Positions 2,660 to 20,292 of a DNA stretch of 43,160 bases are shown piece by piece. A program made the translations under genes and the position numbers. This DNA is from Candidatus Saccharimonadota bacterium (GTDB lineage Bacteria; Patescibacteriota; Saccharimonadia; Saccharimonadales; SZUA-47), in NCBI GenBank assembly GCA_043727115.1, contig JAYSZA010000004.1, forward strand, positions 1 to 43,160, read 5' to 3'. How positions within the stretch are numbered: position 1 is the stretch's first letter; each line of letters starts with the position of its first letter. The notes under the pieces are model-generated. The model had not been told where the DNA came from. It did no database searches and was given only the letters and a program-made list of their open reading frames with translations.

Positions 2660-3112
2660 TTACTTAAGTATTCTTTGCAGGTCTCTCTCGGTGTCGCGCC
2701 TTTTGAGATCCTGACGTTTATCGTAGTTCTTTTTGCCTTTGCCTAAAGCGATACGCAATTTCACATACCTACCCCTCGTCAAAATATCTAAAGGTACTAT
2801 GGTTCTTCCTTGCTTTTTGGCTTCGATAATTTGGTCTATTTCTTTGCGCTTCGCCAGAAGTTTGCGTGTTCTAGTGACTTCGGTGTCTTCAATAGGTATA
2901 CCCTTAGTTCCATGGACTGAAGCATTAATTAGGAATAGCTCGTCGTCCTTGACAGTTACGTACGCGCCTTGAAGTTGCCCATGCCCAAGTCGAAGACTTT
3001 TGGTTTCTCTGCCGTTCAAGACAATTCCCACCAAGAAACTATCACCCAGTTCGTAGTCGAATCGAGCGCGTTTGTTCTTTATGGTGCCCTCAGACGGCTT
3101 CTTCTTTTTCAT
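2660..3112 (-). CDS. smpB: SsrA-binding protein SmpB
   Basis: ORF 2660..3148 trimmed to Met13 (MKKKKPSEG). 'ARFDYEL', 'VLNGRETKSLR', 'KLLAKRKEI' and a basic C-terminal tail match SmpB. Confidence 0.9.
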   Translation of the reverse strand: MKKKKPSEGTIKNKRARFDYELGDSFLVGIVLNGRETKSLRLGHGQLQGAYVTVKDDELFLINASVHGTKGIPIEDTEVTRTRKLLAKRKEIDQIIEAKKQGRTIVPLDILTRGRYVKLRIALGKGKKNYDKRQDLKRRDTERDLQRILK

Positions 3113-3119
3113 AACATAC

Positions 3120-3148
3120 AGTGTAACAGAGGTTATGGTTATAGACAA
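3120..3148 (-). promoter_or_regulatory. smpB promoter TTGTCT-17 nt-TGtTACACT, 7 nt from the ATG at 3112
   Basis: Read on the minus strand. Its -35 is the reverse complement of the AGACAA that forms the -35 region of the divergent + strand promoter. Confidence 0.5.
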
Positions 3149-3170
3149 TAGTATTATAATATGCTATAGT
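3127..3170 (+). promoter_or_regulatory. Promoter cassette copy 1: CAGAGGTTATGGTTATAGACAA + 17-nt spacer + TGcTATAGT
   Basis: -35 TAGACA at 3142-3147 and extended -10 at 3162-3170. The 22-nt 5' part is identical to 4059-4080. Confidence 0.55.
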
Positions 3171-4034
3171 ATGTCTATAATGAGTGACAGCAACTTATTG
3201 CATCCTGAATATATCGATTCTATGCCGTTCATCGGTGATTTTGTTGCTGAAAAACTCGAGAGATTAGCCAGAACAGAGTCGAGTCACTCTTCATTAGGGC
3301 TTCCGGACATTAGCGTAGTTATCAGAACGCTGAACGAAGCTGGTCCTCTAGAAGAGCTATTTGAAGATATTGAGGCACAGAAAATCGGCTCAGACGTTCA
3401 AGTAATTGTTGTTGATAACGAATCGACAGACGGTACTCCGGAATTAGCACGAGAATTTGGCGCAACAGTTAGGACTATTCCACGCGGAGAATTCACGTAC
3501 CCAAAGTCGATGAATTTTGGGGTCGAAGCCGCCGATAACAAGGTTGTATATCTTACGGTCGGGCACGTGCTTCTATCCAACAAGCTTCTACTAAGTGCCG
3601 CCGCGAGAAGTTTTCTCGATGGTAGCACGGGCGCAGTCTACGGAACATCACTACTGTCAGGTAAAGCATCTACCCCAGAGAGAATGTTATCTATACCCTT
3701 TGCCCGTTCAATGTCGCAGAGGCTTGTCAAGAAAACAGGAATGGGCGTTATGGGTGCAACTAGCGCCGCTATAAGAAAAGATGTATGGCAAGAACTAGGC
3801 AAGTTTGATGAGCGTTATGAAAGTGGTGGTGAAGATTCTGCAATGGCTGGTAGAATTATTGCTTCAGGACTAGATGTGATGGAACTACCTCTACTTTCCG
3901 CCCATCATAGCCACGGCCTAGGCTGGACAGATACTGCTAAACAATGGCTCCATTGGGCCAGAACTGCTAGAGGACCGATACCTCTATCAAGGGGCGTACT
4001 CGCAGCAAGACGTCCTGACATAGACTTCAGCTAG
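3171..4034 (+). CDS. Family 2 glycosyltransferase
   Basis: 'ISVVIRTLNE', 'VVDNESTDGT' and 'GGEDS' are GT-A/GT2 motifs. The track ORF start at 3072 overlaps smpB and was rejected. The ATG at 3171 abuts the -10, so the in-frame ATG at 3180 may be the true start. Confidence 0.8.
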   Translation: MSIMSDSNLLHPEYIDSMPFIGDFVAEKLERLARTESSHSSLGLPDISVVIRTLNEAGPLEELFEDIEAQKIGSDVQVIVVDNESTDGTPELAREFGATVRTIPRGEFTYPKSMNFGVEAADNKVVYLTVGHVLLSNKLLLSAAARSFLDGSTGAVYGTSLLSGKASTPERMLSIPFARSMSQRLVKKTGMGVMGATSAAIRKDVWQELGKFDERYESGGEDSAMAGRIIASGLDVMELPLLSAHHSHGLGWTDTAKQWLHWARTARGPIPLSRGVLAARRPDIDFS

Positions 4035-12062: not shown

Positions 12063-12092
12063 TTGATTCAAACAGGGGTGTTATGCTACACT
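12063..12092 (+). promoter_or_regulatory. atp operon promoter TTGATT-18 nt-TGcTACACT, 7 nt from the ATG at 12100
   Basis: Hexamers read directly at 12063-12068 and 12087-12092, with TG at 12084-12085. Confidence 0.5.
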
Positions 12093-12099
12093 TGTGTCA

Positions 12100-12420
12100 A
12101 TGGGGAAAAAAGCACCTAAAGATGTGGCCACCAAAGGAGTCACGGCACCAGACAGCTTGATTGAAAGCAGTTTGGAAGCATTTAGCGCTAAAAGACAATT
12201 TGTCGTTTCTTCAATAAGCATGGGTTGGCAACTTGCCGGAGCGGTCATTATACCTGTTTTTATAGGTGTTAAGTTGGATCAAAGATTCAATTCCAGACCG
12301 TCGTACACGCTTGCAGCACTAGTTATCGCAGTCGGTGGAGCGATATATATTATCCAAAAAACGATTGACCAAGTTAACAAAGAACAACAAGATTATAGAG
12401 ATAGAAAGGAAAAAGATTAG
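12100..12420 (+). CDS. AtpZ/AtpI-like small membrane protein of the ATP synthase operon
   Basis: 106 aa with two TM helices. It is the first gene of the atp cluster. The ATG at 12100 is preferred to the GTG at 12094. Confidence 0.5.
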   Translation: MGKKAPKDVATKGVTAPDSLIESSLEAFSAKRQFVVSSISMGWQLAGAVIIPVFIGVKLDQRFNSRPSYTLAALVIAVGGAIYIIQKTIDQVNKEQQDYRDRKEKD

Positions 12421-17008: not shown

Positions 17009-18574
<1,566 letters not shown>

Positions 18575-18634
18575 ACCGTATTGGTTAAAACTCTAAATTT
18601 TCAAAGAACTACCCCTATAATACTCTACATAAGC

Positions 18635-18656
18635 GGTATTGTCAATACCTTTTGTG
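18635..18656 (+). terminator. Weak intrinsic terminator after atpD
   Basis: GGTATTG-T-CAATACC palindrome followed by TTTTGTGTT. The stem is AT-rich and short. Confidence 0.35.
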
Positions 18657-18667
18657 TTCTATTCATA

Positions 18668-18696
18668 TTGACTTATGCACATGTAAAGCGTACAAT
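18668..18696 (+). promoter_or_regulatory. Promoter TTGACT-17 nt-TACAAT in the atpD-int spacer
   Basis: Hexamers at 18668-18673 and 18691-18696. No ORF follows. Confidence 0.5.
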
Positions 18697-18702
18697 TAAA
18701 TT

Positions 18703-18787
18703 ACGTTGATTGAACACATAGCCCGAAGTGAGAGCTTTAGGTTATGTGAAAACATGACTAAAAGGCTCTGAGCAATCAGGGCTTTTC
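18703..18787 (+). ncRNA. Candidate ~85-nt sRNA: one 9-bp hairpin plus a GNRA-capped terminator
   Basis: Hairpin CACATAGCC/GGTTATGTG (18715-18748, one G-U pair). Terminator GCTCTGA-GCAA-TCAGGGC (18765-18782, one U-G pair) followed by TTTT. The wobble pairs only form in the + strand RNA. Confidence 0.4.
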
Positions 18788-18840
18788 TCATAGGCTCTCT
18801 TAAAAACTCAGAACATACGGTATAAAGATACCGATAGTTG

Positions 18841-19102
18841 ATAATAACAAAGTGGAGTGGTGAAATAGGTAGACACTAATAGTGATAGGTTGCAACGACA
18901 TGCCACCCATCGACCTTGTGCGAGAAGTACATCCGCCCACATCAGAGTAACGTAAGGGGAAATCCCGACTTCGGCAGTAATGTGGCGAAACCATCCTATA
19001 AATGGGAATTGTGTGGTAAAACTCTGGCAAATTGTGGAGTGCGGGAGCACATAGAGGGCAACCACTGCAAGGTGCAAATCCTTGCCTCCACTTTGTTATT
19101 AT
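18841..19102 (+). ncRNA. Unclassified tRNA-Leu-like structured RNA with a large internal insertion
   Basis: Perfect 17-bp closing helix (18841-57/19086-102). D-arm-like TGGTGAAATAGGTAGACAC and T-arm-like GCAAGG-TGCAAAT-CCTTGC abutting the helix. Internal helices include cUUCGg and GNRA tetraloops. Confidence 0.55.
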
Positions 19103-19308
19103 GAACATCTTATTATTTATATATAGAGCCACTGGGTAACGGTATAGAATTGCCCCTATACGCTCTGTATATAAGTTTAGAAATGATACTAGGGAGTCTT
19201 CGGGTGGCCACGAGATTACGGATTACGTTGTAATGATCTGCTTTAAGATTGCATTACGTACGCATGTATGAAGCCCAGCTACGTTATTTTATGTGTTTTG
19301 AGTTAGTG

Positions 19309-19352
19309 AGGGTTTACCTGCATAAGGATATAGCGGGTAGACCCTTTTATAG
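19309..19352 (+). terminator. Strong intrinsic terminator just upstream of int
   Basis: 13-bp stem AGGGTTTACCTGC/GCGGGTAGACCCT with two U-G pairs that form only in the + strand RNA. 11-nt loop, then TTTTATAGTTTTT. Confidence 0.65.
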
Positions 19353-19395
19353 TTTTTAATTATTTGATTAGCAAGTAAAGATGGAGTAAGATTTA

Positions 19396-20292
19396 ATGTC
19401 ATCCCTAAGACAAAAAAATAGGTGGGAGACAGAAAGTACAGCCTCTATGAAACTAAGCGAAGGCCTTGTTTTCTATACTCAAAATTACTTGTTTATGCGT
19501 GGGTACGCTAAATCAACCAATGATAACTATAGGTGGGCTGTGACTTCGTTCATCAAGGTTGTCGGAGATAAAGATATTAGTGACGTTACGCTTGACGATG
19601 TACTGAAGTGGAGATTTTATATCAAAGAACAAGGTTGGGCTACCAATGCAGTTAATGCCTATTGTTACAAGCTACGGAAGATACTTGCGTACTTTGTGAG
19701 AAAAGGTTACTTAACGATTGATTTAGAAGATTTCCTGATTCCTAAGAAAGAACAGAAGCTACCTACATATCTATCCTTAGAAGAAGCGCAGAGAGTCTAT
19801 AGGGCGTGTTTAGATTCCAGAGAGCGTCTGATAGTGGCTCTACTGTTTGCAACGGGCATACGGGTCTCAGAATTGTGTCAGATACGCACGAAAGATATTC
19901 AAGGTGATAAGATTCTTATTCGTGGTAAGGGTTCACGGGAAAGATATGTATATACGGATGAGGCTACCCGTGAGTGCGTCTCTGCTTACCTACTCGAGCG
20001 TAAGGCCAGCTCACAGTTTCTACTCGATTCAATCCGAGGAAATAATCTGACTATAAGTAGAGTGCAGGATATTATGCAAGAACTAGGAACTAGAAGCGGA
20101 ATAGATAAACACTTAACTTGTCATGTTTTTAGACATACATACGCTACCCTGCTACTTTCAAATGGGTGTAACCTAAGGCATATCCAAGAGTTGTTAGGCC
20201 ATGCAGATATTTCTACTACGCAGATATATACCCATGTAACGAATAGTGATCTTGCGGGTAGTTATATGAAGTATCATGTGTCTTTAACCTAA
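19396..20292 (+). CDS. int: Tyrosine recombinase / phage integrase (XerC/D-like)
   Basis: N-terminal SAM-like core-binding domain. Catalytic region 'ATGIRVSEL', 'GKGSRERYV', 'HVFRHTYAT' and 'LGHADISTTQIYTHV' supplies the R-K-H-R-H-Y residues. Confidence 0.92.
   Translation: MSSLRQKNRWETESTASMKLSEGLVFYTQNYLFMRGYAKSTNDNYRWAVTSFIKVVGDKDISDVTLDDVLKWRFYIKEQGWATNAVNAYCYKLRKILAYFVRKGYLTIDLEDFLIPKKEQKLPTYLSLEEAQRVYRACLDSRERLIVALLFATGIRVSELCQIRTKDIQGDKILIRGKGSRERYVYTDEATRECVSAYLLERKASSQFLLDSIRGNNLTISRVQDIMQELGTRSGIDKHLTCHVFRHTYATLLLSNGCNLRHIQELLGHADISTTQIYTHVTNSDLAGSYMKYHVSLT

Follow-up and report, generated by a model that had tools for sequence, protein, structure and literature searches.

What is the tRNA-like segment between atpD and a prophage integrase gene in a Saccharibacteria genome, and does it belong to the host or to the phage? 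The segment lies at positions 18841–19102 of a 43,160-nt stretch of contig JAYSZA010000004.1 (assembly GCA_043727115.1, Candidatus Saccharimonadota bacterium; the whole stretch is called the window below). It looks like a tRNA-Leu whose anticodon and variable arms have been exchanged for about 190 nt of other sequence. A preliminary description of the locus had offered three readings: an intron- or insertion-bearing tRNA-Leu serving as the attachment site attB, a phage-borne tRNA-mimic non-coding RNA comparable to YrlA-type Y RNAs or to the large prophage-associated RNAs found beside tRNAs, and a new RNA class linked to the integrase. Our sequence comparisons indicate that the element is very probably a prophage-encoded RNA gene, read from the + strand, that belongs to a family carried by mobile elements. 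Overall we favour, with confidence somewhat above even, the explanation that it is a phage-borne tRNA-Leu mimic without an anticodon arm which acts as a tRNA surrogate; for the decoy role that we prefer within it our confidence is well below even.

The element is closed by a long perfect helix. ATAATAACAAAGTGGAG (18841–18857) is the exact reverse complement of 19086–19102, as had been described, and with up to 3 mismatches allowed this 17-nt repeat has only two matches in the 43-kb window, where shuffled sequences lead one to expect 0.15 and none of 100 shuffles reached two. The outer 10 nt of the 5′ strand (18841–18850, +) pair perfectly with the outer 10 nt of the 3′ strand (19093–19102, +), which is followed by a U-rich stretch. 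The inner seven pairs form an acceptor stem, with AGUGGAG (18851–18857, +) against CUCCACU (19086–19092, +), 7/7 paired; CCA is not encoded, the base after the stem is U, and pair 3-70 is U3-A70. Immediately inside the 5′ strand, TGGTGAAATAGGTAGACAC (18858–18876, +) forms the D arm, consisting of U8-G9, a 3-bp stem GUG/CAC and an 11-nt class II tRNA-Leu-type loop AAAUAGGUAGA, of the general form (G/A)AAUAGGUAGA. The 18-mer starting at 18859, GGTGAAATAGGTAGACAC, is exactly the D-arm signature of phage tRNA-Leu(UAA) genes, which bears out the likeness to tRNA-Leu noticed earlier. At the other end GCAAGG-TGCAAAT-CCTTGC (19067–19085, +) does abut the closing helix; it gives a T arm with the 6-bp stem GCAAGG/CCUUGC, the 7-nt loop UGCAAAU and a G at position 55, and it is preceded by a U at 19066.

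Between the two arms lies a 190-nt insert (18877–19066, +) in place of the anticodon and variable arms. Its G+C content is 49%, and that of the whole element is 46% against 35–37% in the flanking spacer, in agreement with the enrichment reported before. The complementary segments GGTTGC/GCAACC at 18888–18893/19058–19063 (+) make a candidate insert-closing helix, GGUUGC/GCAACC, which stops 3 nt before the T stem, the mode in the family being 2 nt. The other segments of the preliminary description are also present, namely CGCCCACAT/ATGTGG-CG (18934–18942/18980–18987), GGGG-AAA-TCCC (18956–18966), CTTCGG (18969–18974) and GTGC-GGGA-GCAC (19039–19050). However, the minimum free energy fold of the insert interior favours other long-range pairs than these helices, and the CTTCGG 'tetraloop' has a single closing pair only. 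The fold energy (z = −4.5) is equal on both strands and thus does not distinguish them. Three open reading frames (ORFs) overlap the element, at 18800–19132 (−), 18808–19077 (−) and 18916–19104 (+). No homologue of this insert was found by BLAST among the fetched loci and the other family inserts, a metagenome scan for the same D arm, 172–202 nt and the T arm gave no match, and neither did BLAST of the element region against GenBank phages.

No catalogued RNA corresponds to the element. The whole window was searched with Rfam 15 at the gathering threshold, which gave no match, and 18600–19400 was searched at E ≤ 10, which gave only a chance snoRNA match on the opposite strand and outside the element. 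The Rfam tRNA model and the group I intron model RF00028 have no match on it at E ≤ 10. ARAGORN calls no tRNA and no tmRNA in the window; with introns allowed and relaxed scoring it yields only a poor 'tRNA-Thr' with mismatched stems. The Rfam negatives are meaningful because the same approach detected genuine cases: RF00028 found the group I intron of a phage tRNA-Leu(UAA) gene (L085) with 40.9 bits and E = 5e-9, and ROOL (RF03087) was detected at 260–271 bits in other loci. In the window neither RF03087 nor the GOLLD model has a match. Furthermore, the anticodon stem-loop with U33 of a canonical tRNA is absent, and with it the anticodon loop into which a group I intron would be inserted. The U3-A70 pair stands where a tmRNA has G3·U70, and the ends of the element pair as an acceptor stem, which together with the silence of Rfam separates it from YrlA and other Y RNAs. 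To be noted, seven tRNA-Leu(UAA) genes in IMG/VR (L085, L091, L096, L125, L145, L178 and L187) carry group I introns of 200–213 nt in the anticodon loop, and these intron-bearing phage genes have the same D-arm sequence as the window element.

The element has many relatives. In another locus (L185) the D arm and the odd T arm recur, with 67 nt unlike tRNA between them. An IMG/VR search with AAGGTGCAAATCCTT returned at least 120 matches. Membership was decided by sequence pattern and a pairing test, in which a script looked for the D arm, allowing up to 3 substitutions, and for the T arm, and demanded that 6 or more of the 7 acceptor pairs form. This gave 71 distinct elements, with IMG/VR as the main source; the family therefore has at least 71 distinct copies, and the counts given for it refer to the matches listed. 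All 71 have one layout: the 7-bp acceptor 5′ strand, UG, GCG-GAAUAGGUAGA-CGC, an insert of 9–233 nt, (C)AUG, YAAGG-UGCAAAU-CCUUR, one extra base and the acceptor 3′ strand. CCA is encoded in none of them (n = 71), and the base after the acceptor stem is A in 44. A sampling with the commoner family D arm only, which is independent of the T loop, gave 127 unique matches, about 75 of them family-like and only about 20 true tRNA-Leu. Among the family-like matches the T loop reads UGCAAAU in 62 and UUCAAAU in one, so G55 is a real family signature and no artefact of the query.

Cultured phages carry the family as well, including Leuconostoc phage Ln-9, Enterococcus phages EFP01 and EfV12-phi1 (lytic Schiekvirus), Listeria phages B054 and LP-101, Brochothrix phage BtpYZU01 and Paenibacillus phage Pd_22F, so that strictly lytic phages are among the carriers. 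Members are also found on pheromone-type conjugative plasmids of Enterococcus faecalis. None of the inspected GenBank records of cultured carriers has an annotation at the family site, Rfam 15 leaves the family itself unmatched in the other member loci, and full-text literature searches found no description of such an RNA. The family thus appears new. tRNA mimicry as such is a known theme, with tmRNA, YrlA, viral tRNA-like structures and mascRNA as examples.

For the covariation analysis, the inserts were taken out and 69 distinct members were aligned over 56 columns (alignment A4). In this alignment 98% of the cells at paired positions can pair, while only 36–43% do so when the partners are slid by 1–3 columns. 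Changes on both sides occur at 7/7 acceptor pairs. Acceptor pairing was a selection criterion; the D-stem pairs and the sixth T-stem pair were not. D-stem pair 11-25 covaries from C-G to U-A, and in the T stem pair 31-47 and the sixth pair, 30-48 (G-C to A-U), do so as well. Because the sixth pair covaries, the acceptor/T stack consists of 7+6 = 13 bp. G·U pairs occur in the family and therefore fix the transcribed strand. There are 24 invariant columns, all of which the window element carries; U8, G9, A14, A15 and G19 are among them, and so is a U that precedes the T stem by two bases. This U is a candidate for the partner in A15-U48 as in tRNA-Leu, and the conserved positions agree with the tRNA-Leu core set U8-A14, A15-U48 and G18G19. 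Judged by what is conserved, the family is derived from tRNA-Leu and retains its acceptor stem, D arm and T arm, the 'elbow plus acceptor' half of the molecule. Its signatures are the 13-bp acceptor/T stack, G55 instead of U55, the invariant U two bases before the T stem and the unencoded CCA.

The inserts differ widely and fall into 61 sequence clusters among 69 members. In 37 of 68 members a predicted insert helix stops exactly 2 bases (A, U) short of the T stem, compared with 16% of shuffles. As modelled from these predictions, four arms meet as they do in a tRNA, and the fourth of them can vary freely. The closing helix varies too. In most members it extends beyond the acceptor stem by 0–3 pairs, and only three of the 71 have an extension of at least 10 bp: the window element with 10, L246 with 12 and L286 with 16. 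These long extensions are unrelated in sequence and that of L286 contains 4 G·U pairs, which argues for an RNA helix and not a DNA terminal repeat. A duplex of 17–23 bp would be long enough for RNase III and would hinder RNase P unless it is cut first.

Some units resemble the family without matching it fully. Four IMG/VR loci (L359, L382, L392 and L404) have the family D arm, with the 3′ module AUGYAGGGUGACUAUACGAGU replacing the UGCAAAU T arm; they may be a sister class. In L231, a possible second, tandem family copy extends from about 12243 on, directly behind a first copy at 12085–12224, where an array of more than 25 tRNAs ends. This second unit has the T arm UGAGG-UGCAAAU-CCUCA, but its acceptor strands pair imperfectly and little of the locus is left beyond it. 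Escherichia phage garuso (Felixounavirus, L425) has an unannotated unit of about 55 nt (~1474–1528) between tRNA-Asn and tRNA-Tyr, with a 7-bp acceptor-like stem, the T arm UAAGG-UGCAAGU-CCUUA and no D arm. A 22-nt stretch of this unit is matched by BLAST in other Felixounavirus-type genomes (phages of Escherichia, Salmonella, Shigella and Citrobacter). The unit may be a distant, further reduced relative.

The genomic neighbourhoods place the family among tRNAs and other phage RNAs. We counted tRNA arrays over the 71 members and Pfam families over 122 flanking ORFs. In or beside same-strand tRNA arrays lie 16/71 members, several of them spaced 1–10 nt from a tRNA. In two loci a ROOL RNA ends directly upstream of the family member, 14 nt away in L259 (ROOL at 667–1248) and 11 nt away in L302 (6641–7219); in L242 ROOL (2663–3235, −) lies 458 nt downstream. 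This adjacency suggests co-transcription and shared processing. ROOL and GOLLD are found near tRNA islands in phages (PMC12286853, PMC5737381). The flanking ORFs nearly always run in the same direction as the element; the commonest encode late transcriptional activators, HNH endonucleases and the small terminase, and about 20 of the 71 members stand between a late activator gene and the terminase genes. Ro/Rsr (TROVE) is not among the top 25 Pfam families of the flanking ORFs, and an integrase is found in only 4/122. Thus, of the three earlier readings, that of a phage-borne tRNA mimic agrees best with the neighbourhoods, although the kinship is with RNAs that sit beside tRNAs and neither with ROOL/GOLLD themselves nor with the YrlA topology. 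That of a new RNA class also holds, but its proposed link to the integrase does not.

On the E. faecalis plasmid pKUB3006-2 (L426), a family member at 3488–3776 lies in the prgA-prgB gap, which measures 1.56 kb there and 193 nt in pCF10; this member has the same insert as L302. The untranslated stretch that separates prgA from prgB was implicated earlier in translational control of prgB, according to work cited in PMC8265641. The same gap also holds a second, different tRNA-like unit (L426 ~3925–4010) that ARAGORN does not call, with the acceptor UUGGCGU/ACGCCAA and the T arm GUAGG-UUCGAUU-CCUAC.

To which side of the attachment site does the window element belong? The left part of the window is Saccharibacteria chromosome, with an atpD 84% identical to that of a Candidatus Saccharimonas metagenome-assembled genome and with atpA and atpG upstream. 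The right part is phage, encoding a DNA polymerase exonuclease subunit, a peptidase/endolysin, a tail fibre and an internal virion protein, and the tyrosine integrase of the prophage lies at 19396–20292 (+; Pfam Phage_integrase, 5.6e-38). In host relatives atpC follows directly 3′ of atpD and no similar RNA is present, contrary to what a host-derived RNA gene at attB or attL would predict. BLAST against 80 atpD loci of relatives matched only an identical Logan contig, so the element is not a conserved host gene. A nucleotide alignment with host relatives did not place attL, but phage relatives did. Three phage contigs have homologues of the integrase (58% identical in L326, 57% in L327 and 45% in L328), and phage genes flank their int-upstream spacer on both sides; a scan of viral contigs with the window integrase found no relatives. 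Of atpD, the spacers of L326 and L327 hold no more than the last ~13 codons; behind these comes sequence with homology to window 18575–18822 and then again to 19119–19395. These attP copies of the atpD end read SAFYMKGGIEDIK and ..GGIEEVM up to the stop codon (L326 ~1775–1818 and the L327 spacer). The C-terminal residues of the window atpD resemble the phage copies, and those of host relatives end differently. From these spacers it follows that this phage group integrates at the atpD 3′ end and brings along a replacement for it. The attL crossover region with the phage-supplied last atpD codons is located at 18536–18574 (+). By this comparison of spacers everything to the right of ~18553 is phage DNA, and the element is on the phage side of attL.

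In L326 about 55 unrelated bases stand in place of the block that holds the element (~18823–19118), and L327 and L328 lack this block. As it is missing from the same spacer in these relatives, the element is a presence/absence accessory cassette in the attP-int spacer. The E. faecalis plasmids show a like pattern, with a member in the long prgA-prgB gap of pKUB3006-2 and a short gap in pCF10. At the cassette's left edge there is a perfect hairpin, CGGUAU-AAAG-AUACCG (18818–18833); L326 has a different hairpin there. L326 also has an AT-rich hairpin with a T run at the element's place, and the outer pairs of the closing helix might conceivably descend from a terminator stem that received the cassette. 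The window contains no attR and no direct repeat of the spacer. It also lacks atpC, which adjoins atpD in relatives; thus the prophage separates the two genes.

Comparison with known RNAs shows which features the family shares and which it does not. Like class II tRNA-Leu, including phage tRNA-Leu(UAA), it has an identical or near-identical D arm, a 7-bp acceptor stem and a 7-nt T loop with U54, C56 and A58, and its members occur in phage tRNA arrays. Unlike tRNA-Leu it has neither an anticodon arm nor a long variable arm, its T stem is 6 bp, its T loop has G55 and CCA is unencoded. The window insert is not a group I intron, and neither ARAGORN nor the Rfam tRNA model calls the element. The tRNA-like domain of tmRNA is similar, with an acceptor stem made by the 5′ and 3′ ends, a T arm and, where a tRNA has its anticodon arm, a large non-tRNA domain. 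However, the family has a full D arm, no G3·U70, no tag ORF and an arbitrary insert length (9–233 nt), and it is present on phages and plasmids in many variants, while tmRNA is a universal single-copy host gene. With YrlA and other bacterial Y RNAs, some of which are phage-encoded, it shares a tRNA-like D/T elbow that does not decode. In YrlA the ends are reportedly part of the stem found in place of the anticodon arm, and bind Ro/Rsr (Chen and colleagues, 2014). By that account the topology of the family is inverted, and it has no Rfam match.

By analogy with mascRNA of MALAT1 and with engineered tRNA scaffolds, the tRNA-shaped module could recruit RNase P and RNase Z or stabilise an embedded RNA, and the minimal member L249 looks like an engineered tRNA-Leu without the anticodon arm. 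Unlike the eukaryotic mascRNA and artificial scaffolds, the family is natural, abundant, located on bacterial mobile elements and marked by its own sequence signatures, and its processing is a prediction. With ROOL and GOLLD it shares the habitat, that is phages, prophages and plasmids near tRNA islands (PMC12286853, PMC5737381), but there is no relationship in sequence or structure and the element is far smaller.

How could such an RNA work? It would be transcribed together with its neighbours and recognised by tRNA maturation enzymes: RNase P would form the 5′ end and RNase Z or exonucleases the 3′ end, perhaps with the CCA-adding enzyme taking part. In members with a closing helix of 17–23 bp, including the window element, an RNase III-type cut may come first. 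The product would be a stable L-shaped RNA that cannot decode, in which the conserved elbow/acceptor module would act as a tRNA surrogate. We prefer, tentatively and by analogy, a decoy or sponge that would not itself be cleaved and would capture a factor able to recognise the body of tRNAs, such as a defence nuclease aimed at tRNAs; the insert would be merely tolerated or a lineage-specific add-on. Most tRNA-directed defence nucleases attack the anticodon loop. In tRNA T loops, UUC is the site cut by a prokaryotic Schlafen defence nuclease, and mutation of U54 or U55 abolishes the cleavage (PMC13462974). The family T loop reads UGC where the site of this nuclease has UUC. The decoy is preferred because conservation lies in the elbow and acceptor, no anticodon loop is left and UGC replaces UUC in the T loop, and because tRNA islands are where phages keep counter-measures to tRNA depletion.

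Several points weigh against the tRNA surrogate or decoy. The 17-bp closing helix buries the acceptor end and would hinder RNase P and any function that needs a free 3′ end. Just 62% of members have an A in the position that follows the acceptor stem, a point against aminoacylation. No element-specific promoter or terminator was found. Compensatory changes in the insert between close relatives (L234/L297 compared with L322) suggest that the insert itself matters, which favours a scaffold. And since the family was retrieved by pattern, the conservation of the searched motifs and the percentage of paired cells are partly built in.

The strongest competitor is a natural tRNA scaffold or processing cassette, which we regard as rather unlikely though well ahead of the remaining alternatives. 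The frame would recruit RNase P and RNase Z, the variable insert would be the effector, excised and stabilised, and neighbouring RNAs such as ROOL would receive defined ends, in analogy to MALAT1-mascRNA and engineered tRNA scaffolds. Apart from these compensatory changes, this would explain why hypervariable inserts (61 clusters among 69) are nevertheless structured, the fixed 2-nt distance between helix and T stem, and the two members that follow ROOL by 11–14 nt and the several that lie 1–10 nt from tRNAs. The interval between late activator and terminase genes, where about 20 of 71 members lie, would be a sensible place for a processing site. On the other hand, members with inserts of 9–29 nt have no plausible cargo, a mere processing signal would need neither G55 nor the 13-bp stack nor a near-invariant D loop, and ordinary tRNAs already fill the role of punctuation. 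That the phage and plasmid mimics are either anti-defence decoys against tRNA-targeting immunity or scaffolds that display hypervariable RNA domains is a possibility we hold with reserve. As decoys they would, thanks to the G55 T loop and the 13-bp stack, hold a host factor that senses the body of tRNAs and yet escape both cleavage and use in translation. In either case they would be tied functionally to the neighbourhood of tRNA islands, ROOL and GOLLD, with the distant groups Bacillota and Saccharibacteria as hosts. A leucine-accepting, non-decoding tRNA is improbable. It would be CCA-added, charged by leucyl-tRNA synthetase (LeuRS) and used as leucine donor for a non-ribosomal reaction or to titrate LeuRS. 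The D arm and core positions fit the tRNA-Leu identity set, and the minimal member L249 resembles an engineered 'minimalist' tRNA-Leu. As reported in PMC2377443, citing Larkin 2002, the anticodon arm is dispensable for LeuRS charging and deletion of the whole arm costs about 2.5-fold in affinity, so that charging without this arm is possible in principle. However, the discriminator A73, critical for LeuRS, is A in only 44/71 members and U in the window, and G55 removes the G18-U55 contact that is listed as important (PMC2377443). In addition, the additional pair of the T stem displaces the 3′ end with respect to the elbow, CCA is unencoded and the 3′ end of the window member is buried in the 17-bp helix.

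The other explanations are very improbable. One of them is a DNA-level feature, either a MITE-like (miniature inverted-repeat transposable element) insertion bounded by 17-bp terminal inverted repeats or else a terminator hairpin that resembles a tRNA by coincidence. In its favour are the perfect repeat, the indel relative to L326 and the AT-rich hairpin, followed by a T run, that L326 has in this place. But the window has no second copy, inspection of the flanks by eye showed no target-site duplication, the core has all 24 invariant columns, most members have no extension, and the family shows RNA-type covariation and G·U pairs, also in the extended helix of L286. Slightly less credible still are the two readings that keep a known RNA. 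For an interrupted or intron-bearing tRNA-Leu gene as prophage attachment site, the first of the earlier readings, one can cite the D arm identical to that of phage tRNA-Leu(UAA) genes, some with group I introns of 200–213 nt, and the adjoining integrase. We rejected it: the anticodon stem-loop is missing, RF00028 is silent at E ≤ 10 against 5e-9 on a true case, the family inserts are mutually unrelated and range from 233 nt down to 9 nt, and attP is the atpD 3′ end, with atpC after atpD in host relatives. For a reduced tmRNA-like ribosome-rescue RNA, with the insert as mRNA/pseudoknot domain, the topology fits, with the ends in an acceptor stem and a large domain between the D region and the T arm, and several short inserts can be drawn by eye as putative H-type pseudoknots. 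However, ARAGORN finds no tmRNA, pair 3-70 is G·U in only 3/69 members so that alanine identity is missing, the D arm is complete unlike that of tmRNA, inserts of 9–40 nt are too short for a tag, and no conserved reading frame was seen by eye in the three frames of the window insert (no formal scan was made). Two more candidates were discarded, a tRNA pseudogene, as the covariation and the family-specific signatures speak for selection, and an integrase-guiding RNA, as an integrase is rarely adjacent in the family.

If real and functional, the tRNA-Leu mimic would be a new player in phage tRNA islands, which are studied for evading tRNA-directed defences, a concrete and testable neighbour for ROOL RNA and a natural precedent for tRNA-scaffolded RNAs. 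The cultured, genetically tractable carriers (Listeria, Enterococcus and Leuconostoc phages and E. faecalis plasmids) make the question directly testable. The window also shows a Saccharibacteria prophage that integrates into the coding end of atpD and rebuilds that end.

The spacer of this prophage has some further features. A promoter-like site, TTGACT-17-TACAAT, is present at 18668–18696 and is followed by a stretch of about 90 nt that ends in a hairpin and U run, GGCUCUGA-GCAA-UCAGGGCU-UUUCUC (18764–18789), conserved in L326, L327 and L328. This stretch may be a phage small RNA or a terminator that the phage brings for the atp operon. In L326–L328 a sequence of about 20 nt is repeated on either side of the atpD fragment, and these repeats are possibly arm-type sites.

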